NCBI GenBank assembly: GCA_964016885.1
Contig: OZ024742.1
Coordinates: 8,184,001-8,248,000 of the forward strand
Direction of reading: 5' to 3'
DNA from: Eledone cirrhosa
Taxonomy: Eukaryota
Length of the DNA stretch: 64,000 bases
Shown: positions 1 to 62,216 of the stretch, one piece after another
How the letters are laid out: the number at the start of each line of letters is the position of its first letter
How positions within the stretch are numbered: the stretch's first letter is position 1
Made by a program: the position numbers and the translations under genes
Notes under the pieces: model-generated
The model's database searches: none
The model's input: only the letters and a program-made list of their open reading frames with translations
What the model was told of the DNA's origin: nothing

Positions 1-3000
1 ATAGATGTCATAAGGAACACATACACACACACAGAGGAGAGACACACATATAGATGTCATAAGGAACACATACACACACACATAGAGGAAAGACACACAT
101 ATAGATGTCATAAGGAACACATACACACACACACACACAGAGGAGAGACACACATATAGATGTCATAAGGAATACATACACACACACAGAGGAGAGACAC
201 ACATATAGATGTCATAAGGAACACATACACACACACACACACAGAGGAGAGACACACATATAGATGTCATAAGGAACACATACACACACACACACACAGA
301 GGAGAGACACACATATAGATGTCATAAGGAACACATACACACACACACAGAGGAGAGACACACATATAGATGTCATAAGGAACACATACACACACACACA
401 GAGGAGAGACACACATATAGATGTCATAAGGAACACATACACACACACACAGAGGAGAGACACACATATAGATGTCATAAGGAATACATACACACACACA
501 GAGGAAAGACACACATATAGATGTCATAAGGAATACATACACACACACAGAGGAAAGACACACATATAGATGTCATAAGGAACACATACACACACACACA
601 CACAGAGGAGAGACACACATATAGATGTCATAAGGAATACATACACACACACAGAGGAGAGACACACATATAGATGTCATAAGGAACACATACACACACA
701 CACACACAGAGGAGAGACACACATATACATGTCATAAGGAACACATACACACACACAGAGGAGAGACACACATATAGATGTCATAAGGAACACATACACA
801 CACACACAGAGGAGAGACACACATATAGATGTCATAAGGAACACATACACACACACACAGAGGAGAGACACACATATAGATGTCATAAGGAACACATACA
901 CACACACACAGAGGAGAGGCACACATATAGATGTCATAAGGAACACATACACACACACACAGAGGAGAGACACACATATAGATGTCATAAGGAATACATA
1001 CACACACACAGAGGAAAGACACACATATAGATGTCATAAGGAACACATACACACACACACACAGAGAGGAGAGACACACATATAGATGTCATAAGGAACA
1101 CATACACACTCACACAGAGGAGAGACACACATATAGATGTCATAAGGAACACATACACACACACACAGAGAGGAGAGACACACATATAGATGCCATAAGG
1201 AACACATACACACTCACACAGAGGAGAGACACACATATAGATGTCATAAGGAACACATACACACACACAGAGGAGAGACACACATATAGATGTCATAGGG
1301 AACACATACACACACACACACACACACAGAGGAGAGACACACATATAGGTGTCATAAGGAACACATACACACACACAGAGAGGAGAGACACACATATAGA
1401 TGTCATAAGGAATACATACACACACACACACATAGAGGAGAGACACACATATAGGTGTCATAAGGAACACATACACACACACACAGAGGAGAGACACACA
1501 TATAGATGTCATACGGAATACATACACACACACACACATAGAGGAGAGACACACATATAGATGTCATAAGGAACACATACACACACAGAGGAGAGACACA
1601 CATATAGGTGTCATAAGGAACACATACACACACACACACAGAGGAGAGACACACATATATATGTCATAAGGAATACATACACACACACAGAGAGGAGAGA
1701 CACACATATAGATGTCATAAGGAATACATACACACACACACACAGAGAGGAGAGACACACATATAGATGTCATAAGGAACACATACACATACACACAGAG
1801 AGGAGAGACACATATATAGATGTCATAAGGAACACATACACACACACACAGAGAGGAGAGACACACATATAGATGTCATAAGGAACACATACACACACAC
1901 ACACACAGAGGAGAGACACACATATAGATGTCATAAGGAACACATACACACACAGAGAGGAGAGTCACACATATAGATGTCATAAGGAACACATAGACAC
2001 ACACAGAGGAGAGACACACATATAGATGTCATAAGGAACACATACACACACACAGAGAGGAGAGACACACATATAGATGTCATAAGGAACACATACACAT
2101 ACACACAGAGAGGAGAGACACACATATAGATGTCATAAGGAACACATACACACACACACAGAGGAGAGACACACATATAGATGGCATAAGGAACACCTAG
2201 ACACACACACACATAGAGGAGAGACACACATATAGGTGTCATAAGGAACACATACACACACACAGAGAGGAGAGACACACATATAGATGTCATAAGGAAT
2301 ACATACACACACACACACACACAGAGAGGAGAGACACACATATAGATGTCATAAGGAACACATACACACACACAGAGAGGAGAGACACACATATAGATGT
2401 CATAAGGAACACATACACACACACAGAGAGGAGAGACACACATATAGATGTCATAAGGAACACATACACACACACAGAGAGGAGAGACACACATATAGAT
2501 GTCATAAGGAACACATACACACACACAGAGAGAGGAGAGACACACATATAGATGTCATAAGGAACACATACACACACACAGAGAGAGGAGAGACACACAT
2601 ATAGATGTCATAAGGAACACATACACACACACAGAGAGAGGAGAGACACACATATAGATGTCATAAGGAACACATACACACACACAGAGAGGAGAGACAC
2701 ACATATAGATGTCATAAGGAACACATACACACACACAGAGAGGAGAGACACACATATAGATGTCATAAGGAATACATACACACACACAGAGGAAAGACAC
2801 ACATATAGATGTCATAAGGAACACATACACACACACACACACAGAGGAGAGACACACATATAGATGTCATAAGGAACACATACACACTCACACAGAGGAG
2901 AGACACACATATAGATGTCATAAGGAACACATACACACACACAGAGAGAGGAGAGACACACATATAGATGCCATAAGGAACACATACACACTCACACAGA

Positions 3001-5060
3001 GGAGAGACACACATATAGATGTCATAAGGAACACATACACACACACAGAGGAGAGACACACATATAGATGTCATAGGGAACACATACACACACACACACA
3101 CACACAGAGGAGAGACACACATATAGGTGTCATAAGGAACACATACACACACACAGAGAGGAGAGACACACATATAGATGTCATAAGGAATACATACACA
3201 CACACACACATAGAGGAGAGACACACATATAGGTGTCATAAGGAACACATACACACACACAGAGAGGAGAGACACACATATAGATGTCATAAGGAATACA
3301 TACACACACACACACATAGAGGAGAGACACACATATAGATGTCATAAGGAACACATACACACACAGAGGAGAGACACACATATAGGTGTCATAAGGAACA
3401 CATACACACATACACACAGAGGAGAGACACACATATATATGTCATAAGGAATACATACACACACACACAGAGGAGAGACACACATATAGATGTCATAAGG
3501 AATACATACACACACACACACAGAGAGGAGAGACACACATATAGATGTCATAAGGAACACATACACATACACACAGAGAGGAGAGACACACATATAGATG
3601 TCATAAGGAACACATACACACACACACAGAGAGGAGAGACACACATATAGATGTCATAAGGAACACATACACACACACACACACAGAGGAGAGACACACA
3701 TATAGGTGTCATAAGAAACACATACACACACAGAGAGGAGAGTCACACATATAGATGTCATAAGTAACACATAGACACACACAGAGGAGAGACACACATA
3801 TAGATGTCATAAGGAACACATACACACACACAGAGAGGAGAGACACACATATAGATGTCATAAGGAACACATACACATACACACAGAGAGGAGAGACACA
3901 CATATAGATGTCATAAGGAACACATACACACACACACAGAGAGGAGAGACACACATATAGATGTCATAAGGAACACATACACACACACACAGAGGAGAGA
4001 CACACATATAGATGGCATAAGGAACACCTAGACACACACACACATAGAGGAGAGACACACATATAGGTGTCATAAGGAACACATACACACACACAGAGAG
4101 GAGAGACACACATATAGATGTCATAAGGAATACATACACACACACACACAGAGAGAGGAGAGACACACATATAGATGTCATAAGGAACACATACACACAC
4201 ACAGAGAGGAGAGACACACATATAGATGTCATAAGGAACACATACACACACACAGAGAGGAGAGACACACATATAGATGTCATAAGGAACACATACACAC
4301 ACACAGAGAGGAGAGACACACATATAGATGTCATAAGGAACACATACACACACACAGAGAGAGGAGAGACACACATATAGATGTCATAAGGAACACATAC
4401 ACACACACAGAGAGAGGAGAGACACACATATAGATGTCATAAGGAACACATACACACAGAGAGAGAGAGGAGAGACACACATATAGATGTCATAAGGAAC
4501 ACATACACACACACAGAGAGGAGAGACACACATATAGATGTCATAAGGAACACATACACACACACAGAGAGGAGAGACACACATATAGATGTCATAAGAA
4601 ACACATACACATACACAGAGAGGAGAGACACACATATAGATGTCATAAGGAACACATACACACACACAGAGGAGAGACACACATATAGATGTCATAAGGA
4701 ACACATACACATACACAGAGGAGAGACACACATATAGATGTCATAAGGAACACATACACATACACACACAGAGGAGAGACACACATATAGATGTCATAAG
4801 AAACACATACACACACACAGAGGAGAGACACACATATAGATGTCATAAGGAACACATACACACACACAGAGGGGAGACACACATATAGGTGTCATAAGGA
4901 ACACATACACACAGAGACTCACATACACACAGAGACACACAGAGACACACATACACACACACACAGAGAGGAGAGACACACATATATGTGTCATAAGGAA
5001 CACATACACACACACTCAGAGGAGAGACACACATATAGATGTCATAAGGAACACATACAC
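1..5060. repeat. Minisatellite array, ~51-59 bp unit (CATATAGATGTCATAAGGAACACATA(CA)nGAGGAGAGACACA)
   Basis: About 90 tandem units; length variation comes from the internal (CA)n run. The overlapping ORFs are translations of the repeat. Confidence 0.97.
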
Positions 5061-5480
5061 CCACACAGAGACACACATACACACAGAGACACAGAGACAC
5101 ACAGAGACACACATACACACAGAGTCACACATACACACAGAGACACAGAGACACACAGAGACACACATACACACAGAGACACACATACACACAGAGACAC
5201 AGAGACACACAGAGACCCACATACACACAGAGACACACATACACACAGAGACACAGAGACACACATACACACAGAGACACACAGAGACACACATACACAC
5301 AGAGACACACATACACACAGAGACACAGAGACACACAGAGACACACACACACAGAGAGACACAGAGACACACAGAGACACACATACACACAGAGACCCAC
5401 ATACACACAGAGACACACATACACACAGAGACCCACATACACACAGAGACACACAGAGACACAGAGACACACATACACAA
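5061..5480. repeat. Degenerate CACAGAGACACACATA-type short tandem repeat
   Basis: Tandem 8-18 bp CA/GA units continuing from the minisatellite. Confidence 0.9.
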
Positions 5481-11701: not shown

Positions 11702-13579
11702 ATGTTGAACGCAGCGAACGAAAATAGTGGTGGGGGGACAGCGGTAAGAGTTGTAAGCTCGCACGCTTTAGTCCTCCCTTCCTTCCCAACTAACGTCATA
11801 GAGAAGGAAGGAAAAATGAAAATAAAAACGGACGAATCTGCGGAGGAAAAATTAAATGACGAAAACAACGAAAAAAAAAATTTGAAAAATTGCATGACAA
11901 TACTAATAACACAAACAAAGACACAACAAACAAAAAAATAACAGTTGAAAATAACATCATATCAGAAAACAAAGCAGACGACAAGATTTCTTTTGCACAG
12001 AAAACAAAGAAATCTTTGACTTATATAGCGGAAAACATTTCAGATGTGGTACGAAGGATCACGGACGCAAAACAATACATAAGTGAAGGTGAGAATGGTA
12101 TTTTATTGGTAAAAATGCCTCAAGAATTCACGAAAGACATTGAAAGCCGAACGGTCAAGTTTCGGACCATCAACAACAGTACAAAAAAACCTGAACAGCC
12201 TTCTCAAGCAGATATCAAAACAGTACTCGCAGAAGTACTGAATGAAACAACTTTCATAAGAAAAGACAGACTGTATGGAAGCCTAGCAATTATCATGAAG
12301 AACGAATCGGCGGCAAAAAAATGTGCTTTGTCACCGATTCGTTCGAAAAATTTCACCTTTTATCCATCTTATATGGGAAAAAAAAACTCAACGCATATGG
12401 CTGGATGCAATGATGCCAGATGTGGACTACTGCTGGCTCATAGCTGGCTTCATCGATCCAGTGAATGACAACGTGATTTCCATTGGGAAAACCACAGGCA
12501 ATGCGTTCAGTGGAACAGGTATAGAGCTGGTAGTACAAATGAAGCCTGAACGCATCGCCCAAATACCCGACAGAATCCTATTAGAGGACCACGGGTATAT
12601 AAACATTAGCGTGGAGGGGAGAAGGCCATCCTGCCATATCTGTGCAGGCAGAGGGCACCTGAAGGCCGCTTGTCCACAACTCAACAAAAAGAAAACTCTG
12701 CTACCAACACCAGCTCCACCACCACCACCACAACAGATAAACAAACAACAAAACTCAGTCCCACCCAACCCGTCCCTCAGTAACACCACAACACCACCAC
12801 AACACAAACAGTCACAACACATTACACCAAAACAAAATACAGGCCCACCCAACCTCTCACTCAATAAAACAACACAACCACCGCAGACACAACACACAAC
12901 ACAGTCTAACATAGTGACATCCATCTCCCCCACAAAGAAAACCAACACGGAAACATTACCAGCAAACATACCTCTTCCCTCCAACACTGAAGATAACCCA
13001 ACGAATTCGGAGGAAGAAACGGAGTCCTTCAGACAGATTAAAAGGAAAAAAAGAAAACATGTGCAAAACACACAAGGACAAACAACCCCCACCCAAATCG
13101 CAACACAATCTAACAAAACAGAAAACACCCCTCCAGCAACAAACAAAACCAAACCTGCCCCTCCCCTCTTCGAAACACTCACACCATCGGAAAAAAAGAC
13201 ATTACACTATACTTACATCAACAGAAACAATAATAAATTAAATGAACTCATATACAATAATCCTTCGGTACAAACCGAAGGTGTAAACTTTGTTTCATCA
13301 GAAAACCACCCACATTTAAAACTAATAAAAATCCCAATGAACCTCTACCAAAAACTAAAAAAGGATTTTAAGGAGGACGTAGGACCACCCTCTGTCAAAC
13401 CCATAAACCGCGTCCTACTAAAAAGCTTTCCCCCTCCCCTTCCCCTCCCCAACACAACTCCAAACACCCCAACCCCACCACACACCGACGACCCCACACC
13501 ACCACAAGACACCCCTTCACCCAACACCCCCGACCCCATGGAAGTCGTGCAACCCGAACCCCGGGAAGCGGAAAGGTAG
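11702..13579 (+). pseudogene. LINE ORF1 (gag-like, CCHC zinc knuckle), frameshifted
   Basis: Three overlapping frames (11702-11941, 11890-12468, 12323-13579) that switch near poly-A runs at ~11875 and ~12380; knuckle CHICAGRGHLKAAC; Pro/Thr-rich tail. Confidence 0.8.
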
Positions 13580-13612
13580 GTCTCTACACTCTCCTTTGGC
13601 TCTGCCGCCCAC

Positions 13613-16600
13613 ATGGATGTGTTAAGAGTAGGATGTTTGAATGCACGTGGCCTGGGCTAAACTTGGAAGCAAGCAAAGCTTCTAAATGACCTCAGGTCAT
13701 GTAGTATAAATGTAATGGTTATCTGTGAGACTCGAATCAGCGTCATGCGGCAGCTGGCCCCCACCTTCGATGACTTTGAGGTGCATGCATCTCTCTGTCA
13801 ACCTGGAGGTGGGGGTGGGGTTGTCGTGCTGCTGCAAAAACACCTGGGTCTTGCCGTACAGGTTGTGCACTCGGACTCGGAGGGTCGTTTGTTGGTGCTA
13901 GACGTTGGCAGTAGTGAAAGTGCGGCCTTGAGACTGGTCGCCGTCTACTCCCCTTTCGGAGCTGAACGGCCCGACTTCTTCCAGCGTTTGGAGACTTTTC
14001 TGGGAACGTCGCGTTCCCTGCTTCTAGCGGGGGATTGGAATGACATCCTGGATGCACGTTGGGACTATGCAGGAGCATGTCCTAATAGAGGGGGGTGTAA
14101 CAGCCTCAAGGGGTTACTCGACCGTTTTAACTTGGTCGATAGATATCGACTAGATTTTCCAACTGTGCCTACCTGGACTTGGAGAAACCACAGTGGTCAA
14201 TCTAGATCGTACTTAGATAGATTCTTAGTTAGAAGTAAGGATAGGGACATATTAAGCTGTCCAGAAATGCGCACGGTTGGCTACACGGATCACAAATTAG
14301 TGACCTGCGTGGTCAATCTCGAGAAAACACATAGACAGGGTCCCGGTTACTGGAAACTTAATTTGTCGTTACCGGCAAAAGAGACTTACAGAAACCGGAT
14401 TAGCAGATTAGTTAAGGAGAGGTTGACGGGTGCAATCGTCAACAACCGATGGTGGGCATCTCTCAAAAGAGAGATTAGAACAGAATCAATAAGTTATAGC
14501 AAGATGTTAGCTGCCAATAGGAATAGAAACGAGAAAGAATTAACAGGTAAATTAGAAGAGGCAATCAAGAGCGAAGATGTGGCCAGAGTGATGGCATCGA
14601 GGACGGCCTTGAACCAGTTTTTCGATGCAAAGCATGAAGGCTGCGTCATTCGAAGTAAAATACGTGCTCTAGGTAATGAGGGGGCCAAAGCCGTTGGATG
14701 GGCCCGCGTGACAGAAGCTAAAAGTGGAAATCGATCCACCATCCGGTCGTTGCAAGACGAAGATGGACGAGTGATCCGGGAGCCTAAGCAGATGTGCGAG
14801 GCCTTTCAAAAGCACTTTGCCCGATTGTTCGGGGGAGGCGAGGGTCCGGGCCGGGGCGTGGATTTCGGTCCATACCTCGACGGCCTGCCGCGTCTCTCGA
14901 ACAAAGAGGCAGAGTCCTGCGAGGGACCAATCTCGGCTGATGAGATCGGAGATGCGCTGAGCCAATGCAGCAGACGCAAATCTCCAGGTCTCGATGGTAT
15001 ACCTTACGAACTTTATTTAGCAATGCCGGTCTTCTTCTCCGAACTCCTCGAAGCGGTCTACTGCAATTGGCAGCAGAACGGGAAAATTCCTTGTTCTGTA
15101 GCCAAGGGCGTAGTCACGCTGGTGAGGAAGGACGAGAACAAGGGGGATAGTATAAATAATTTTCGGCCCATAACCCTGCTAAACACAGAGTTAAAGATTT
15201 TGGCCAAGGTGTTAGCAAAGAGGTTGGCGCTTGTCGTGGGTGGCCTGGTGGGAGATGCGCAGACATGTGCTATCCCATCCAGGTCCATTCACGATAACCT
15301 CCACCTCATGCGATACATCATAGAGAGGGTTGGCAACAAACCCGGCTTCGGTGGGGCCCTGATCAACTTGGATCAGTCTAAGGCCTTCGATAGGGTCGAC
15401 CATGGTTACCTGGATGCGGTGCTAGCGGCGGCTGGGTTCGGTCCTGTTTTCAGAGGCTGGATCACTGCCCTACATAGCAACCACATCTGTTCTAGGATCA
15501 AGGTGAACGGCTACCTTTCGAAGCCGTTCGAAATCACACGATCCATTCGACAGGGGTGCCCTCTCTCCTCCCTTCTGTACGTATTGACTCTCGAGCCTTT
15601 ACTGAGGAAGTTGGAGTTGTTGCAGGGTATCCCCCTGGAACCAGGATTGAGCAAAGCGGTGTCGGCCTACGCCGATGACGTAACAGTAATGGTATCAACC
15701 GACTCGGAGATCGAGGCGATCGGTACCTTACTGGAGGAGTACGAAAGGTTGTCAGGAGCGAAACTGAACCGGGAAAAATCCATCGGGCTGCAGCTCGGAA
15801 CGTGGAGAGGCAAACCGATGCCTCCTGACGGTGTCGTCGGACACTGGACGGAGGGCCCGGTAAAGTTGCTTGGGGTCTGGTTTGGACCGGACCTCCAGGT
15901 GGAAAAGAACTGGAACGAGGTTACGAACAAGGTGTTTGCACTAACCCAGAAATGGGCCAAGTGTAAGCTGTCCCTAAAAGGCCGGGCGGAGGTGGCGAAC
16001 ATTTACATAGCGTCCGTCACTTACTACCGCCTGACTGTCGTGCCTTGCCCTAAGGAAACACTCACCACCATGGAACGCATGCTCTTCCAATTTCTTTGGA
16101 AGAAGCGTCCTCCTATGGTGAGAAGATCCATCTGCTGCCAACAACCTTCGAAAGGAGGGCTGGGGATGCCGTGGTTGATGATGCGTAGGCACGCATTAAG
16201 GCTACGGCACCTACAGGTATTCCTCACTGGTCAACCGGTGTGGGCTCCGTTCGTGAAACGAGCCTTTCCGAGACTCGTCTCACTCACCGAGCTACAGTCC
16301 TGGGTCAAGCAAAGATCCGGAAAACTGGGAGACTGGCACACTGAGTGTGCTCAGGCGCTCAGGGCTCTCTGGCAAGCGGGCCGGGCCATCGGTGGAGAAT
16401 CCACCTCATCATTCTATAGAGGGCTGGTGGCTAGCAGGGGCGATGACACCCTTGGAGAGTCGCTGGACATGGAGGAAGACGAACTGGCCAGCCTGTTCGG
16501 TAGGACTTTCGGCCCAGGACCAATGGACAACTTCCAGAAGTCACTGGCCTGGCAGTGCTACCGAGGGGCTCTACCCGTTCGAGAGAGGCTCTACAGACAC

Positions 16601-17050
16601 GGGCGCCCGGGCAGGGATCCCTCAAAAAAGATTTGCCCTAGATGCGTGCGTCACGAAGAAACCGTGGCGCACGCATTGGTGCAATGTCCGGGCGTGGCTG
16701 ATCTGTGGGGCTACGCCGAACAACTGCTGTCGCGGGTGGCGCCGATTAAATTGACCGCCGAGTCCGTGATGACAATCAAACCGCCTCCCCTCTTCACAAA
16801 GGAAGCAAAGGCGGTTTTTCTGTGCGTAATAGCCATGTTGAAAGAGGTTGTTTGGTGGACACGATTGAAAGGTCTGAGGTCAGGCAACTTCCTCTCTGGC
16901 CATAGTCTGGTCTACTTCTTCCGATATCACTTCGGAAGAAGGATAAGAATGGAGAGAGAGGTGCTTGGCCACAGGCAGTTTTATGAAAGGTGGGTGATAG
17001 TGGCGAGAATGGCTCGTGTAAATGGGCCTTCTCTGTATACCATCCTGTAG
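13613..17050 (+). CDS. LINE ORF2: APE endonuclease, reverse transcriptase and C-terminal zinc finger; one premature stop at 13658-13660
   Basis: MDVLRVGCLNARGLG* is in frame with the 1111-aa ORF. Motifs: ICET, AGDWN, SYLDRF, TDH (EN); SPGLDG, FRPITLLN, DQSKAFDRV, RQGCPLS, YADD (RT); CPRC..ETVAHALVQC. Confidence 0.93.
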
Positions 17051-22547: not shown

Positions 22548-22583
22548 TCTTCTGATGAAGGACTAGCGTCCGAAACGTTAAGA
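22548..22583 (+). ncRNA. Minimal type I hammerhead ribozyme
   Basis: TCTT-CTGATGA-A-GGAC-TAGC-GTCC-GAAA-CG-TT-AAGA; palindromic ACGT stem III. Lies in a ~190-bp insert repeated at 27320-27505. Confidence 0.85.
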
Positions 22584-24010: not shown

Positions 24011-24192
24011 TTTAATACATTAACAGAGAAAGCTTTAAGCAATACTCCGACCGACTTCCGTCTCACTCAACAAACATTAGGATATACCTTAGTATAATCC
24101 CAATTATACGTTTGAGGTGCTAACTATACGTATTTTGCGGATAGCCAGTTGTATTATTTTATGAGACATAATTAAATACATCCCGCTTTCCA
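24011..24192 (-). mobile_element. Solitary 3' fragment of the ~996-bp HHR repeat family
   Basis: Reverse complement aligns to 57046-57235 (TGGAAAG...CTCATAAAATAATACAACTGGCT...GTTAGCACC...CCTAATGTTTGTTGAGTGAGA...GTCGGAGT...AAGCTTTCTCTG...TGTATTAAATA); (TA)n on both sides. Confidence 0.85.
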
Positions 24193-33387: not shown

Positions 33388-34826
33388 TTATATGCATTTA
33401 AAAAAAGAAAAAGTCGTTTTCAAACGATGGTTACAGTATAGTGAACGTTCAATTTTGCTGTTCAAAAGTTTGTTTAGCGACGTTAAAATGCAGTATATCT
33501 CCAAATTGCAGAATTTGCAGAATCGATGATTTTGCTTATATGCAGGCGCAGCAGCAATAATTTGCCAATCAAGGGAGAATGCTTGATTGTTCCTCCGGAG
33601 CTGCCAGGCTTTATCGGCGAGGGTTGTTACGGAGCGCATTTTCTCGTGCCTGATCGAAGATCGATGTTGGTATAGGCGAGCTTTGAAAGAAGTTGCGGTA
33701 CATCCGACGTAATACCATTTGTTGGTTCCGGAATTTATTGTACATCGGTAGACAATATTGCGTGCTAGGCATTGGTTATTCAGTGGGCACGTACCTGGTT
33801 TGGTACAGTTACAATTATTTTTATGTTTTGCAGTAGAATCCTGGATAGTTTGGTGGGGTTGTAGTTGCGTGTTAGTGCGTTGTATGTTGCTATGCTGGTG
33901 CGCTGAGTCATTAGGGATGTACTTATTTAGTATTGCTGAGTTGAGTTTTTTAATTAGTTGTTCTATGTTAGGTGCAGTGGAGTATGAGAGTCTAATGGTG
34001 CGTGAGTTAAAGATTTTATAGTATTTATGTGAAGTTGTAAAGTGTTTATTATTAGTGTATAGAATTGTGAGATAATCTTAGTGCTAATAGAAGTATTGTA
34101 CACGGGGTTATACCATATGTACTCTCTACGTCTGACTCTATTTGCTGGTTTGCACCTATTAGTATGCCTATTGATGTGTGTGTGTGGTGCAATACTAGTT
34201 CGACTTAGATGTGTTTTATTCATAGTACTTATGTGGTTATCGTCTAGATATTCTATTTTCTCGCAGTAACCAGCTTTTCTAAGTGCGTCATTATAATATT
34301 CAGCATGCTCGTTGAAGGTTTGCAAATTAGACGACAGTCGGGAGATCCTTATGGATATATTTTTAGGGATAGATTTAATAATGGAATGGGGGTGGTTCGA
34401 TTTTACATTAACGTACTTGAGATTTTCATTAAGTTTGTGAAATGGCTCTATATTACCGTTATTAAGGTTGAAGGTGACATCCAAGAAGTTGACCACCTTA
34501 AGATTGTGTTCGAAGGTAATATTAAGCCCTAGTTCTAAGAAAAGTTTCCTAATGTTTTTACGTCGCCTTTCTAGGTTTTGTTTGTTCATATTCTTGACTA
34601 GTAGAAGTGTATCGTCGCGGTATATTCCGCCGTGGAGGTCCGTAAATTCGCTCTGGAGTCTGTGGGCTATATAGATCCCAACCAGATCCGTGACCTCCGC
34701 CGAATCATTAGAACCCATCGTAACGTCGAATTCCGAGGGTCTATCTCTGCGGACCCAATAACTATTTTTAAAGTGCACTACTGTGCGTCTAGCTTCAAGT
34801 ATAATATTAATTTCCTCGGACCTCAC
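33388..34826 (-). pseudogene. PLE polyprotein remnant: RT (FDVTMGSNDSAE, GIYRDD, NFLDVTF, SNHP, IWYNP) and GIY-YIG endonuclease
   Basis: ORF 33963-34826 plus a frameshifted C-terminus CNC..CPLNNQCLARNIVYRC..YYVGCTATSFKARLYQH..CKFCNLE..LLNSKIE..CNH. Confidence 0.9.
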
Positions 34827-34896
34827 TAACTAACTCGGACCTCTTTCTTTCTCTTTTATCTAGTGTATAAAATATTTTCATATCATTCCAATACAA

Positions 34897-37571: not shown

Positions 37572-42290
<4,719 letters not shown>

Positions 42291-45260: not shown

Positions 45261-46972
45261 GGAAAAAAAGAAACGAAATTTCATTTCCCACTCTTAGTAC
45301 GGCTGTTACTTAAATATAAGTATGTACACGTACATAGATATATGTATACAGATGTACAGTAGTGTGTATATATATATACATACATGCACACATATATATA
45401 TGTACGTATGGATTCACCGAACAATTATTATAGTGCTCGGTGTGTTTGTAAATAAACATCCCGTATTAAGCCGTAGTGTCTAGCAACCATCGTTGCTCGT
45501 TTGTTCAACACTGACAAAGGAACGCTGTACTAGTTTCAAGCTTATTAGCTATCGTCAGCAACGTATACCTTCCTGCCAGATTGTTGAACGTATATACTTT
45601 CCTTATGCGTATTAACGGCTGAGTAGCCCAATTTGCATATCGAGTGGGTTAATCGGCCGGGTGCACCGAAAACGATAAACGGAAAAAATGAAATTAAATT
45701 TCATTTCCCACTCTTAGTAAGGTTGTTACTTAAATATGAGTATGTACACGTACATACATATATGTATACAGACGTACAGTAGTATGTATATATATATATA
45801 CATGCACACACATATATATATGTACGTATGGATTCACCGAACATTTATTATAATGCTCGATGTGTTTGTAAACAAACATCCCGTTGCTGACGATAGCTAA
45901 TAAGCTTGAAACTAGTTCAGCGTTCCTTTGTCAGTGTTGAACAAATGAGCAACGATGGTTGCTGGACACTACGGCTTAATACGGTTTGTTTACAAACACA
46001 CCGAGCATTACAATAAATGTTCGGTGAATCCACACGTACATATATATATATATATGTGTGCATGTATATATATATATACATACTACTGTACGTCTGTATA
46101 CATATATGTGTGTACGTGTACATACTTATATTTAAGTAACAGCCGTACTAAGCGTGGGAAATGAAATTTCGTTTCATTTTTTTCCGTTTATCGTTTTCGG
46201 TGCACCCGGCCGATTAACCCACTCGATATGCAAATTGGGCTACTCAGCCGTTAGTATGCATAAGGTAAGTATATATGTTCAACAATCTTCCAGGAAGGTA
46301 TACGTTGTTGACGATAGCTAATAAGCTTGAAACTAGTACAGCGTTCCTTTGTCAGTGTTGAACAAAGAGCAACGATGGTTGCTGGTCACTACGGCTTAAT
46401 ACGGGTTGTTTGTTTACAAACGCACCGAGCATTATAATAAATATTCGGTGAATCCATACGTACATATATATATATGTGTGCATGTATGTATATATATATG
46501 CATACTACTGTACGTCTGTATACATATATGTATGTACGTGTACATAATTATATTTAAGTAACAGCCGTACTAAGAGTGGGAAATTAAATTTCGTTTCATT
46601 TTTTCCGTTTATCGTTTTCGGTGCACCCGGCCGACTAATCCACTCGATATGCAAATTGGGCTACTCAGCCGTTAATATGCATAAGGTAAGTATATACGTT
46701 CAACAATCTGACAGGAAGGTATACGTTGCTGACGATAGCTAATAAGCTTGAAACTAGTACAGCGTTCCTTTGTCAGGGTTGAACAAACGAGCAACGATGG
46801 TTGCTGGACACTACGGCTTAATACGGGATGTTTGTTTACAAACACACCGAGCACTATAATAAATGTTCGGTGAATCCATACGTACATATATATATGTGTG
46901 CATGTATGTATATATATATATAAATACTACTGTACGTCTGTATACATATATGTATGTACGTGTACATACTTA
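45257..46972. mobile_element. Second, older 422-bp HHR array with inverted arm (minus 45257-45883; plus 45882-46972)
   Basis: HHRs at 45523-45563 (minus), 45882-45922, 46303-46343 (core mutated) and 46724-46764; same end points as the large array. Confidence 0.9.
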
Positions 46973-47349
46973 TATATATGCGAAAGACAAACAGAAATAC
47001 CAAACTAAACGACACAGTACAATGAAGAAATATATTATTAATATACGCATTTGTTGGATGTATATATATATATATATATGCACAGTATTTGTGAGTGTGT
47101 GTGTCTATGTGCGTGAATATATATAATGTCTCGTACACTGTAGTCTATGGTAGATCTTTAAGAACCTCCCATTATAGACTGCTGACAAAACATTTCATTG
47201 AAAATATTATCAAGTGTCATCCCAACAGTCTTACACATCAATCTATGTTCTCTATGGTATTCACTGATAGAACAGGTAATATACTAAATAGCTTTAAGAG
47301 AGGGACAGACAATAGATAGTTAAACACACACACACACATACATATATAT

Positions 47350-53844: not shown

Positions 53845-54571
53845 AAAAGCTTTCTCCGATATTGTATTTATTTATTTACTTTTGGTGCAGCAGATTTGAA
53901 ATTTTCCCGATATAAGGTTAGGATTTCTTTGTTTGTTTTTTATATATGAATATTGATTGTTCCTTATATCTCATTCTATTATTTTGCCCGAGAAAATATC
54001 TGTGTGTGTCATCAAATGTTGTACACACATAGATATTTTTTCAATTTCCAATTGAGTTCTTAGCACGTGGCCTGAATTCCTTTTAGAGTTCATTGTCATG
54101 CGCATGTATTGTTTTTTTTGGCGGTAATTAACTTCCTCATTTTTGAATCAGTTTGAGCATTTCTTTAGAACTGCTGGACTGGCAACCTGACAGATACCTC
54201 AGGCACAGATGATGATTATCGCTAAATACTGATGTTGGTTAGATTATCAATATTAGTATTATTGGGGCACCCACTGATGAATTATAAGAGCCCACTTGAA
54301 TATATATCTATTGATGGTATACAAGCTCCTACATAGATTGGTATAATTTAACCCAAATTGTAGGAATCCTGTAATGAAACGAGACGTCCGTCTGGGAAGA
54401 GATATATTCGATATGTCTCATATGAAATAATACAGCCAATTTTCCACGCAATACTTTTAGTTAGCACCCCGAACGCATGATTGGGAATAAAATCACTTAT
54501 TTCCTAATGTTTGTTGAGTGAGTTGGAATTTGGCCGGAGTATCGCTAAAAAGCTTTCTCCGATATTGTATT

Positions 54572-54575
<4 letters not shown>
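53845..54575 (+). mobile_element. Terminally redundant 703-bp HHR monomer (retrozyme-like)
   Basis: 28-bp direct repeat AAAAGCTTTCTCCGATATTGTATTTATT at 53845 and 54548; homologous to the ~996-bp unit; inside (TA)n. Confidence 0.82.
54270..54396 (+). ncRNA. Type I hammerhead ribozyme, long stem II
   Basis: CCCA-CTGATGA-ATTATA...TGTAAT-GAAA-CG-AGACGTC-CG-TC-TGGG; GUC site; palindromic GACGTC in loop III. Confidence 0.85.
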
Positions 54576-56245: not shown

Positions 56246-56335
<90 letters not shown>

Positions 56336-56538
56336 AACCAGTAAGACCCCGACAGCTGAGCTCAAGCCGTTTCGACGGCTAATTCTGGACTCAGTCCAGA
56401 ATTACCAGAATTACCCGTCGAAACGGCTTGAGCTCAGCTGTCGGGGTCATACTGGTTCCTATTACCCACTCTACTACCTCAAGTATTGAGTACTTTGGTG
56501 CGTTATGGTCCACCTGGTTCCTTACCACATTTCCTTCG

Positions 56539-56796: not shown

Positions 56797-59220
56797 GAAA
56801 TTTCCTCAGTCAAAAGACTGCTCGAATTTCAAATTTGGCGGTCATTCGATACGTGAGGGAGCAGCTTAGCAGACACGATTTTTAACTGCGGTAAGAATTT
56901 TTTATTATATCAAAGTTTAATGGGCTTCCACTGAAGATTTATAAGTGCCCACCTAAATATATTCTTACATGAATATATGTTAGTCTTCTACATAAACTGG
57001 AAACATTCTCCCAATTTGTAGAAAACTTATAATGAAACAATTGTTTGGAAAGAGAGATATGTTTTAACTTTAATTATATCTCATAAAATAATACAACTGG
57101 CTTTCCACAAAATACATATAGTTAGCACCCCAAACACTTAAATTGGGTTATACTAACATATAACCTAATGTTTGTTGAGTGAGATGGTTACCAGTCGGAG
57201 TTTAGCGTTAAGCTTTCTCTGATATTGTATTAAATATGTTACTCTTGATTTGGCCAGAGGTACTTATTTCCATGTACCTTATAAACATGACTTTCCGTAT
57301 TTGTTACTGTTGTGAGATATGGAGGTTTTTTGGTTGTCACTTCTCTGTTTTTAGCCTAAAAAAATATATATATATATATGCGTATGTAAATAATTACATG
57401 CATACATTTATTTTTTTAAATTAATTGAGTTCTTAACACGTGTAATTCATAATAGTTTTAAATAACTAATTAATCCGCGTGTATTAAATATTTTACTCTT
57501 AATTTGGCCAGAGATTTACATTCCCAATCACCTTTAAAGCTTAATCTTCAGTATTTGCTGCGGTGATGTGATGCGGTTTGTTATTTTGGTTTCACCTCTG
57601 TTTTTAGCCTAACAAAATATCTATATGCGTGTGTAATTAATACACGCATACATTCATTTTTTAAATTTCAATTGAGTTCTTAACACGTTTTATTGATAAT
57701 GTTTTTGAAAAAACTAATTAACCCGAGTGTATATTATTTTTTTCTTTTCTCGTATATCGTCGTTGTCTCCCTTTCCCGCTTCGTGACGCTATGAAATTTC
57801 CTCAGTCAAAAGACTGCTCGAATTTCAAATTTGGCGGTCATTCGATACGTGAGGGAGCAGCTTAGCAGACACGATTTTTAACTGCGGTAAGAATGTTTTA
57901 TTATATCAAAGTTTAATGGGCTTCCACTGAAGATTTATAAGTGCCCACCTAAATATATTCTTACATGAATATATGTTAGTCTTCTACATAAACTGGAAAC
58001 ATTCTCCCAATTTGTAGAAAACTTATAATGAAACAATTGTTTGGAAAGAGAGATATATTTTAACTTTAATTATATCTCATAAAATAATACAACTGGCTTT
58101 CCACAAAATACATATAGTTAGCACCCCAAACACTTAAATTGGGTTATACTAACATATAACCTAATGTTTGTTGAGTGAGATGGTTTCCAGTCGGAGTTTA
58201 GCGTTAAGCTATCTCTGTTATTGTATTAAATATGTTACTCTTGATTTGGCCAGAGGTACTTATTTCCAGGTACCTTATAAACATGACTTTCCGTATTTGT
58301 TACTGTTGTGAGATATGGAGGTTTTTTGGTTGTCACTTCTCTGTTTTTAGCCTAAGAAAAAATATATATATGCGTATGTAAATAATTACATGCATACATT
58401 TATTTTTTAAATTAATTGAGTTCTTAACACGTGGAATTGATAATAGTTTTAAATAACTAATTAACCCGCGTGTATTAAATATTTTACTCTTAATTTGGCC
58501 AGAGATTTACATTCCCAATCGCCTTTAAAGCGTAACCTTCAGTATTTGCTGCGGTGATTTGATGCGGTTTGTTATTTTGGTATCACCTCGGTTTTTAGCC
58601 TAACAAAATATCTATATGCGTGTGTAATTAATACACGCATACATTCATTTTTTAAATTTCAATTGAGTTCTTAACACGTTGGATTGATAATGTTTTTGAA
58701 AAAACTAATTAACCCGAGTGTATATTATTTTTTTATTTTCTCGTGTATCGTGGTTGTCTCCCTTTCCCGCTTCGTGACGCTATGAAATTTCCTCAGTCAA
58801 AAGACTGCTGGAATTTCAAATTTGGCGGTCATTCGATACGTGAAGGAGCAGCTTAGCAGACACGATTTTTAACTGCGGTAGGAATTTTTTCTTATATCAA
58901 AGTTTAATGGGCTTCCACTGAACATTTATAAGTGCCCACCTAAATATATTCTTACATGAATATATGTCAGGCTTCTACATAAACTGGAAACATTCTCCCA
59001 ATTTGTAGAAAACTTATAATGAAACAATTGTTTGGAAAGAGAGATATATTTTAACTTTAATTATATCTCATAAAATAATACAACTGGCTTTCCACAAAAT
59101 ACATATAGTTAGCACCCCAAACACTTAAATTGGGTTATACTAACATATAACCTAATGTTTGTTGAGTGAGATGGTAACCAGTCGGAGTTTAGCGTTAAGC
59201 TATCTCTGTTATTGTATTAA

Positions 59221-59222
<2 letters not shown>
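56797..59222 (+). mobile_element. ~996-bp tandem repeat (2.4 units), one long-stem-II HHR per unit
   Basis: Unit starts TGAAATTTCCTCAGTCAAAAG at 56797, 57792 and 58783; no ORF; 3' end in (TA)n; internal ~250-bp duplication. Confidence 0.9.
56926..57050 (+). ncRNA. Type I hammerhead, long stem II (copies 57922-58046; 58913-59037 with mutated core CTGAACA)
   Basis: TTCCA-CTGAAGA-T-TTATAAGT...ACTTATAA-T-GAAA-CAATTG-TT-TGGAA; predicted GUU cleavage after 57045. Confidence 0.88.
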
Positions 59223-60060: not shown

Positions 60061-62216
60061 CGAGAACAAGAGGGACATATGAGACAATGTCAGGCCCATA
60101 ACACTGCTCAACACAGAGTTTAAGTTTCGGCCAAGGTGTTAGCGAAGAGGCTGGCGCTTGTCGGGGATTTGGTCGGGGAGGCGCAAACTTGCGCAATCCC
60201 AGCCAGGTCCATACACCAGACCCTGCACCTAATGCGATACATCATAGAGAGGGTAGGGTGTAAACCTGGCTTCGGTGGGGCTCTGATCAATTTAGATCAA
60301 TCGAAAGCATTCGATAGGGTCGACTATAGGTACCTGGAGGCTGTCCTCAAGGCGGCTAGCTTCGGCCCCGTCTTCAGAAGCTGGATCGCTGCAATGCACA
60401 GCGGCACCTGCTCAATGGTCAAAATTAATGGCCACCTCTTCGAACCGTTTCAGGTCTCCCGATCGGTCCGTCAAGCGTGCCCTCTCTCCTCCCTCCTGTA
60501 CGTATTGACTCTGGAGCATTTACTGCGGAAGCTGGAGCTGTTGCAGGGCATCCCGCTCGAACCGGGACGCGGAAACGCTGTGTCGGCTTATGCGGACGAC
60601 ATCACCGTGATGGGGTCGGACACCTCAGTAATCGAGGTGATCGGCAACTTATTGGAGGAATATGAAAGGTTGACGGGAGCAAAACTTAACCCGGAAAAGT
60701 CGGTGGGCTTGCAACTCGGCACCTGGAGAAGCAAGTCCATGCCGTCCAACAGCGTCGTTAGGTGCTAGACGGATGGACCGGTAAAGTTGCTCGGGGTTTG
60801 GTTCGGACCAGACCTCCAGGTGGATAAGAATTGGGACGAGGTGACGGGCAGGGTAGCCAGTCTCACCCAGAAATGGGCTGGGATGAAGCTAACGCTGAAA
60901 GGTCGGGCGGAGGTGGCAAACGCGTACATCGCGTCCGTCATCTTCTACCGCCTGACCGTCGTACCTTGTCCCCGTTCGCGCCTTGCCATCTTGGAGCGGC
61001 TCCTCTTCAAATTCTTGTGGAGGGGTCAGGTTCTGCTGGTGAGGCGGTCCATCTGCTGCCAGCACCCTCTACGTGGAGGGCTGGGCGTGCCGTGGCTAAT
61101 GATGCGCAGGCACGCGCTGAGGCTGCGGCATCTCCAGATATTCTGCCTAAACGGTGAACAGGTGTGGTCGCCGTTTGTCAGACGGGCCTTTCCGCAGCTC
61201 GTTTCTTTGAGCTGCAGTCCTGGGTCAAGAAGAGACCGAGGCTGAGTGACTGGCATCTGGAAAATTGCCAGACACTCACTGCCCTCTACCAGGCGGGAAA
61301 TGCGGTCAGTGGAACTTCCACTCTCAAGTCCTATAGAGGATTAGTGGTGGGAAAAGTGGGACGACGCACTCGGAGAGGCCCTGGGAGTCGACGAAGTCGA
61401 ACTAACCAGTCTCTACTGGAGGACTTTCGAGTCGGGGACGATGGATAATTTCCAAAAATCCCTCGCTTGGCAGTGTTACCGGGGGGGGGGGGGGCACTGC
61501 CGGTTCGAGATAAATTCTGCAGGCACGGTAGTGCTGTCAGACGGACCTGCCCCAGATGCGCGCAGAGCGACGAAACCGTTCTGCACGCACTCGTCCAGTG
61601 TCCGTGCATTACTGACTTGTTGAGTTATGTTGAACAGCTGTTGTCGCGTGTAGAACGGATCCGGCTATCGTCCGAGTCCATAGTGAAGATCGACCCGCCG
61701 CCTTCTTTTGGTCAGGAAGGGCAGGCAATGTTCCTCTGTCTGGTGGCAGTAGCGAAAGAGGTTGTATGGTGGACGAGGTTGAAAAGACTGAAGACAGACA
61801 CTTTTCACTTCGGCCAATCCCTCATCAACTTTTTCAAGTTTCACTTGGAAAGGAAGGTGAGGGTGGAGAGAGAAGTGCTGCCCCCCAGTACATTTGCTGA
61901 AAGGTGGGTGAATGTGGCGAGAATGGCCCGTGTGAGTGGGCCTACTCTGGTCATGCGGCTGTAGGTAGGTAAATTTGAGGAGGAGAGGGGTGCCCTTCCA
62001 GTGTGCTCTCGAAGCGTCGGGTCGTTCAGGATTGGTGGGGTACCTGAGCGAACCCTGGGTGGTCATCCCCCCTATTGGGGAATTTTTTCTTGTAATTTCA
62101 TTGTTACTTTGTTAATGTGATTCATATTGTTTACTCGATTTTTCTGTAAAACCCCACTATCCCAGTCTTTTACATTGTCCCCTATATGTCGGCCCTTGTG
62201 ACCAATAAATGAAATC
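60061..62216 (+). mobile_element. 5'-truncated, decayed Tx1/L1-clade LINE (RT to 3'UTR), different subfamily
   Basis: DQSKAFDRV, RQACPLS, YADD, CPRC..HALVQC with stops and frameshifts. TSD ATTATTATTA(A/G)CAGTAGTA at 60042-60060 and 62217-62235. Confidence 0.93.

Follow-up and report, generated by a model that had tools for sequence, protein, structure and literature searches.

The 182-bp insert described here is a solitary copy of a repeat family present in the window, the whole analysed stretch of 64,000 nucleotides of Eledone cirrhosa DNA. It was likely reverse-transcribed from RNA already cut by a hammerhead ribozyme, some templates of the family having been self-cleaved linear RNAs, a reading to which we assign a probability of roughly 60%. 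Its basis is the genome-wide distribution of the 5' ends of family copies, which are about five- to six-fold denser between the predicted cut and +20 than on either side. The element is of a known kind, and the genomic evidence for cleavage in vivo is the new part. In the cited passages of two papers, the in vivo activity and the role of the hammerheads of Penelope-like elements (PLEs) are described as unknown (PMC7761336, PMC8557442). A step of 5' ends at the cut would be genome-only evidence of cutting in the germ line and of the use of cut RNAs as templates. Any assembly containing a PLE or retrozyme family lends itself to the same junction count, so that the question becomes testable without RNA.

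The insert and its family

Read on the minus strand from 24192, the insert begins where a (TA)n tract passes into TGGAAAG, and its 3' terminus is TGTATTAAA at 24011, followed by TA repeats. Both ends read as the original prediction had described them, the terminus being that of the tandem array listed in Table 1. The first T is, as had also been pointed out, common to the insert and the TA flank, so that the 5' end lies at 0 or +1 relative to the predicted cut (position 0). As regards a target-site duplication, both flanks are (TA)n. Over 169-199 bases the insert shares 85% identity with the array units, but it belongs to a subfamily different from that of the 995-bp array; its nearest relatives among the fetched loci, L033 and L139, are 98.4% identical to it. 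Since the L033/L139 subfamily carries GUC or GUU at the position homologous to the cut triplet, the cut site can be transferred to the insert by homology. The insert itself carries just the 3' strand of stem I and thus is not a ribozyme. Such a single copy alone proves nothing about cleavage, and junctions were therefore counted genome-wide.

Table 1. Family copies and predicted hammerheads located in the window
Feature	Position	Strand	Remarks
Solitary 5'-truncated copy, 182 bp	24011..24192	minus	From the predicted hammerhead cut to the fixed 3' end of the family, within a (TA)n tract
Divergent-subfamily copy, one unit and a short terminal repeat	53847..54573	plus	In (TA)n
Predicted hammerhead, divergent subfamily	54270..54396	plus	CUGAUGA core, longer stem III, GUC triplet, cut 54392/54393
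Partial tandem array, 2.4 units (996 + 991 bp)	56797..59222	plus	31-32% GC; shared 3' end, then (TA)n
Predicted type I hammerhead 1	56926..57050	plus	Cut 57045/57046
Predicted hammerhead 2	57922..58046	plus	Cut 58041/58042
Hammerhead 3	58913..59037	plus	Core CUGAACA; cut position 59032/59033

A 20-base anchor near the 3' end of the family has 4750 exact matches in the 3.0-Gb genome, and its reversed control has 0. The units are 712-768 or 988-1030 bp long, the longer ones containing a 250-bp internal duplication, and in addition there is a divergent subfamily with units of ca. 703 bp and copies 97-98% alike. Family copies share one fixed 3' end, situated 181-194 bases past the predicted cut and followed by (TA)n. 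In tandem copies the sequence carries on beyond this point, which suggests that the 3' end is set by an internal start of reverse transcription, as has been shown for a PLE of Anolis (PMC11167929). No open reading frame is joined to the family at any fetched locus, and no autonomous partner with its terminus is found among these loci; the array in the window is devoid of stop-free frames of at least 170 codons.

The first 100 of the 4750 anchor matches represent 88 distinct loci, and all of these were taken as an unselected sample, with 5' ends called by alignment to real units. Relative to the cut, these ends are scattered between +94 and positions beyond -1400, as is typical of target-primed reverse transcription. 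Together with the fixed 3' end, the partial tandems, the (TA)n targets and the conserved RNA fold, this spread makes it well supported that this non-coding, (TA)n-targeting retroelement family moves through RNA, as the original prediction had proposed. A comparison of repeated segments within and between elements, aimed at circular templates, gave means of 3.1 and 2.6 mismatches, respectively, in 37 pairs, some of them from duplicated loci.

The window also harbours other repeats. A LINE lies at 12299-17047 (plus strand), with a 426-codon frame and a 1129-codon frame for endonuclease, reverse transcriptase and zinc finger, and a broken relative of it is located at about 60124-61960 (plus strand). 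Tandem arrays of a 422-bp unit, 99-100% identical between units, occupy 37639-42170 and 45882-46975; around 38730-38760 two of their blocks seem to be oriented oppositely. A 51-bp minisatellite of about 98 copies fills positions 1-5071. Close to the family array, at 56335-56458, a long near-perfect inverted repeat lies inside another TA-flanked repeat and registers as a sub-threshold microRNA-like hairpin.

The predicted hammerhead

In the array, the cut had been placed between GUU and TGGAAAG, and the letters agree: GTT occupies 57043-57045 and TGGAAAG starts at 57046. Stem I of this first motif would be formed by 56926-56930 with 57046-57050, enclosing the core CUGAAGA (56931-56937), a branched stem II (56938-57033), the GAAA segment (57034-57037) and a palindromic stem III. 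The third motif of the array has G8 changed to C and is expected to be inactive in its copy. At 22548 (plus strand) and 35506 (minus strand) the window contains compact hammerhead-like motifs with a short stem II, unrelated to this long-stem family.

Among 106 distinct motifs, 105 carry the core CUGA(U/A/C)GA, a segment in which the search pattern permitted only limited change. Position 17, left unconstrained by the pattern, is U, C or A and never G, and the palindrome of stem III is preserved in three versions. In constrained folds, stem I spans 4-5 bp, and stem II spans 7-9 bp before it opens into two further hairpins. When this fold is laid on 15 representatives, 94.4% of cells are paired and 10 of the 36 pairs show two-sided change, against 38-45% of cells and 0-3 two-sided pairs in slid controls. 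The two-sided changes occur in all six helices, and none of 500 shuffles reaches the pairing of the fold. The covariation across subfamilies supports, without proving, a three-helix hammerhead fold open at helix I, the 15 sequences being mutually related and the structure having been drawn from these same sequences. Folding of a single sequence does not outperform shuffles (z -0.98), and the hammerhead structure lies 0.5-9 kcal/mol above the minimum-energy fold. At the base of stem II, U-U replaces G-C in the main subfamilies, and 11 of the 15 representatives are unpaired there; the position of the G10.1-C11.1 pair is occupied by U-U in the largest subfamilies, by A-U in the divergent subfamily and by G-C in some others.

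The Rfam hammerhead models give no match to the family at the gathering score or at E up to 10, likely owing to the branched 96-nt stem II. The folds point to a putative hammerhead variant with a conserved three-way branched stem II of 96 nt, an architecture undetected by Rfam and probably overlooked by current models. Self-cleavage at the predicted bond is suggested indirectly, by the genomic evidence presented below.

Distribution of 5' ends around the cut

Of the 88 unselected loci, 68 extend 5' of the cut, i.e. they read through the ribozyme. Twelve end at 0 to +18, one of them exactly at 0 and seven at +11, and eight end 3' of +18, one of these by internal deletion. The twelve constitute 15% (interval 9-24%) of the 81 loci at risk; set against a background that we estimate at roughly 3-4% of ends per 30 bases, this leaves an excess of about a tenth at the cut zone.

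Junctions of a (TA)5 flank with the element were counted genome-wide in 30-base windows, with patterns that require a clean (TA)5 flank and favour junctions near the anchor. The window around the cut (about -7 to +21) yields 317 junctions; the same flank pattern gives 46 at -29 to +2 and 52 at -98 to -68, where two ATATAT microhomologies of equal length are located. With the complementary flank pattern, a further 296 junctions are obtained in the cut window and a further 61 at -29 to +2. The anchors match 52, 41 and 47 of 68 units in the cut, -29 to +2 and -98 to -68 windows, respectively, and correction for these rates gives 415 junctions for the cut window and 76 and 75 for the two upstream ones. 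Downstream, at +86 to +116, there are 63 raw and 43 independent junctions, 20 rows representing one tandem duplication on contig C6, counted once, and one duplicate row having been dropped. In this large duplication, at G000:C6:26483853-26828979, one short truncated copy recurs as 20 matches at intervals of 12-32 kb. The 43 independent junctions of the +86 to +116 window, which lies nearer the 3' end, rule out a monotonic excess of short inserts.

The position of the step was resolved in three sets. The complete listings for -29 to +2 with both flank patterns (107 rows, of which 6 duplicates were dropped) give 101 places by hand tally. Twenty of them end exactly at the cut, compared with ca. 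6.3 expected under uniformity (Poisson p about 1e-5); a TATA microhomology at -18 accounts for 19, about as many, and the rest comprise 8 at -1/-2, 9 at +1/+2, 23 spread over -3 to -13 and 22 elsewhere. Positions -2 to +2 thus hold 37 places as against 23 in -3 to -13 (hand tally, p 1e-6). In the second set, all 70 cut-window places of contig C1 were fetched, classed by script and corrected by eye, with 11 ATATAT junctions reassigned: none lies at -7 to -3, 8 lie at -2 to 0, 23 at +1 to +10, 38 at +11 or beyond and 1 further upstream. The upstream half of the ribozyme is found nearby in only one of the 70 places, which rules out microsatellite expansion within intact copies. The third set is the divergent subfamily, with 27 distinct places in 28 rows, of which 13 end at +1 to +8, 2 at -1/0, 2 at -2 to -16 and 10 at +9 or beyond (step p 5e-5). 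It is an independent set with different neighbouring sequence, in which the step is repeated, although purines and A microhomologies are present in its upstream stretch as well.

Ends exactly at the cut do not outnumber those at +4 to +11, where most of the excess lies, and the excess culminates in an ATATAT microhomology at +11. What the cut marks is the 5' boundary of a dense plateau of ca. 20 bases and not a lone spike. The single peak that the original prediction expected at the cleavage nucleotide is thus not what the counts show; the excess has its edge at the cut and is spread from 0 to about +20.

Random truncation would attribute the position of the insert to a chance match combined with TA microhomology, to commoner short inserts, or to later nested insertions or deletions at ATATAT. 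Microhomology clearly shapes the junctions, as the classes at +11, -18, -14 and -6 demonstrate, and the first T of the insert is common to the flank. However, equal ATATAT sites upstream collect far fewer ends: the one at -96 has 17 junctions genome-wide, as against 20 at +11 within the first 100 of the 317 rows (hand counts). The window nearer the 3' end is poor in ends as well, the class at +1 to +10 on contig C1 has no TA target and still outnumbers that at -7 to -3, and the step recurs in the second subfamily. At the family level random truncation is already largely refuted, and we regard it as very improbable.

A second explanation dispenses with cleavage and assumes that the reverse transcriptase stalls 0-15 bases 3' of the core, on first meeting the folded ribozyme, a bound protein or the GGAAAGAGAG purine tract, the ends being joined by microhomology. 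The climb of the excess toward +4 to +11 with no peak at 0 is what stalling would give, most copies do read through, and uncut RNA was the main template for the Anolis PLE in vitro according to the passages cited (PMC11167929). On the other hand, the cut lies in a region of weak local folding (50-base windows give -1 to -3 kcal/mol), while a hairpin of -14 kcal/mol, the strongest in the neighbourhood, has no comparable pile alongside: just 3' of it there are 33 junctions, a count made without anchor-rate correction at a place that fewer copies reach. Likewise, at -14 to -30, where the long stem II has its base, the microhomologies account for any pile, and the purine runs immediately upstream of the cut gather no ends. 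The density persists through position 0, inside stem I, and drops directly 5' of it. Moreover, the divergent copy at locus L222 has non-family T bases right before the cut, as predicted by run-off from a cut end. Stalling is in our opinion unlikely, though it is the strongest of the three alternatives.

The third explanation invokes an internal promoter with a transcription start at or just after the cut, short copies being full-length copies of short transcripts. Such a start site would likewise produce a 5' edge, and the terminal repeats of PLEs are described in a review as carrying promoters (PMC6765202). The start would, however, have to coincide with the scissile bond across subfamilies of differing surrounding sequence, and the transcribed intron of Drosophila Penelope extends to the 5' side of helix I, which places the start upstream of the ribozyme (PMC4209133). 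We consider this explanation improbable.

Copying of cut RNA remains our preferred reading. In vivo cleavage, claimed in the original prediction from the position of one copy, is now favoured by the step at the cut and its repetition in the divergent subfamily, with the qualification that most unselected copies read through. As for the insert itself, its end at 0 or +1 fits a 3' cleavage product as template. About four fifths of the exact-cut ends exceed the upstream background, and the odds for this single copy are accordingly near one half.

Proposed mechanism and related systems

The observations can be accommodated in the following scheme. A Penelope-like reverse transcriptase/endonuclease supplied in trans would nick a (TA)n tract, and cDNA synthesis would begin at the fixed internal site of the family RNA. 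The hammerhead would cut this RNA, probably as a dimer formed through the palindromic stem III, and on a linear cut RNA the reverse transcriptase would run off at position 0. The cDNA end might then be joined as it stands, with the addition of a few bases, or after a loss of 4-20 bases; trimming back to the nearest A or AT microhomology would yield inserts of ca. 170-190 bp, like the one at 24011-24192. About a tenth of passes would end at the cut, while the others would read through uncut or re-ligated (circular) RNA and give rise to longer copies and partial tandems.

A candidate for the type of helper was found at locus L113, where a different element lies on the minus strand directly 5' of a copy starting at the cut. 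It gives RVT_1 and GIY-YIG hits below the curated Pfam cut-off, has in its 3' region a compact, different hammerhead of its own, and ends in the same TA tract; by eye it bears no sequence likeness to the family. In the window, two stop-free frames of 288 and 229 codons are located at 33391-34829 (minus strand) and have no Pfam hit; we take them to resemble a broken Naiad-type PLE reverse transcriptase.

In its wider form, which we hold to be somewhat better than an even bet, the proposal is that the genome preserves several hundred fossil germ-line cuts by a Penelope-type hammerhead, a variant with a branched 96-nt stem II, with about a tenth of passes ending at the 5'-OH and the rest running on ligated circles or uncut RNA. 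If so, the in vivo activity of a ribozyme can be read from the 5'-end histogram of its repeat family. In the literature, as represented by titles, abstract openings and passages of papers whose supplements could hold junction maps, no genomic 5' ends were found mapped onto a PLE or retrozyme hammerhead cut.

A precedent for the junctions is R2, whose 5' end is formed by an HDV-like ribozyme: as in the present family, its genomic 5' junctions follow the cut, varied by microhomology priming and added bases (PMC3774820). R2 differs in having a ribozyme of another class and in being autonomous and site-specific, and its cut makes the full-length 5' end (PMC3774820), while in the family the cut lies within the repeating unit and sets the end of just a minority of copies.

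With PLEs and their pLTR hammerheads, as far as the cited passages describe them, the family shares partial tandems, heavy 5' truncation, an internally set 3' end, and AT-rich or (TA)n targets (PMC4209133, PMC8557442, PMC11167929). The likeness extends to the PLE-type hammerhead, with a helix I of 4-5 bp, a helix II base of 7-8 bp, and a palindromic helix III including the 15.2-16.2 pair and loop 3; such hammerheads are thought to cut as dimers (PMC4209133). The family differs from this type by its branched 96-nt stem II and by U-U at the base in the largest subfamilies (PMC4209133). Unlike PLEs, it has no open reading frame, and it has retained G10.1-C11.1 only in some subfamilies. A further difference is the genomic step that the family displays at the cut. 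In vitro, according to the passages cited, a single PLE has been tested, that of Anolis: its dominant template was uncut RNA, no RNA reads terminated at the cut, and cleavage proved dispensable (PMC11167929).

The metazoan non-LTR retrozymes were proposed to be moved by PLEs and are now proposed to be non-autonomous PLE derivatives (bioRxiv 10.64898/2026.07.22.740005). No genomic 5' ends are mapped against the cut in the passages cited from either retrozyme paper (PMC7229834; bioRxiv 10.64898/2026.07.22.740005). Like these elements, the family consists of non-coding, low-GC tandem units with one type I hammerhead per unit, a weak palindromic helix III and a helix II with mismatched U-U at its base, a feature also of one axolotl motif (PMC7229834; bioRxiv 10.64898/2026.07.22.740005). 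Its units are larger, 700-1030 bp compared with typically 150-450 bp (PMC7229834) and up to 972 bp (bioRxiv 10.64898/2026.07.22.740005). Unlike retrozymes, it occurs mostly as dispersed copies shorter than a unit, which share a fixed 3' end within (TA)n, and its stem II of 96 nt is branched. The family thus works like a non-LTR retrozyme or a non-autonomous Penelope-like element, and its membership among the retrozymes is probable but not complete.
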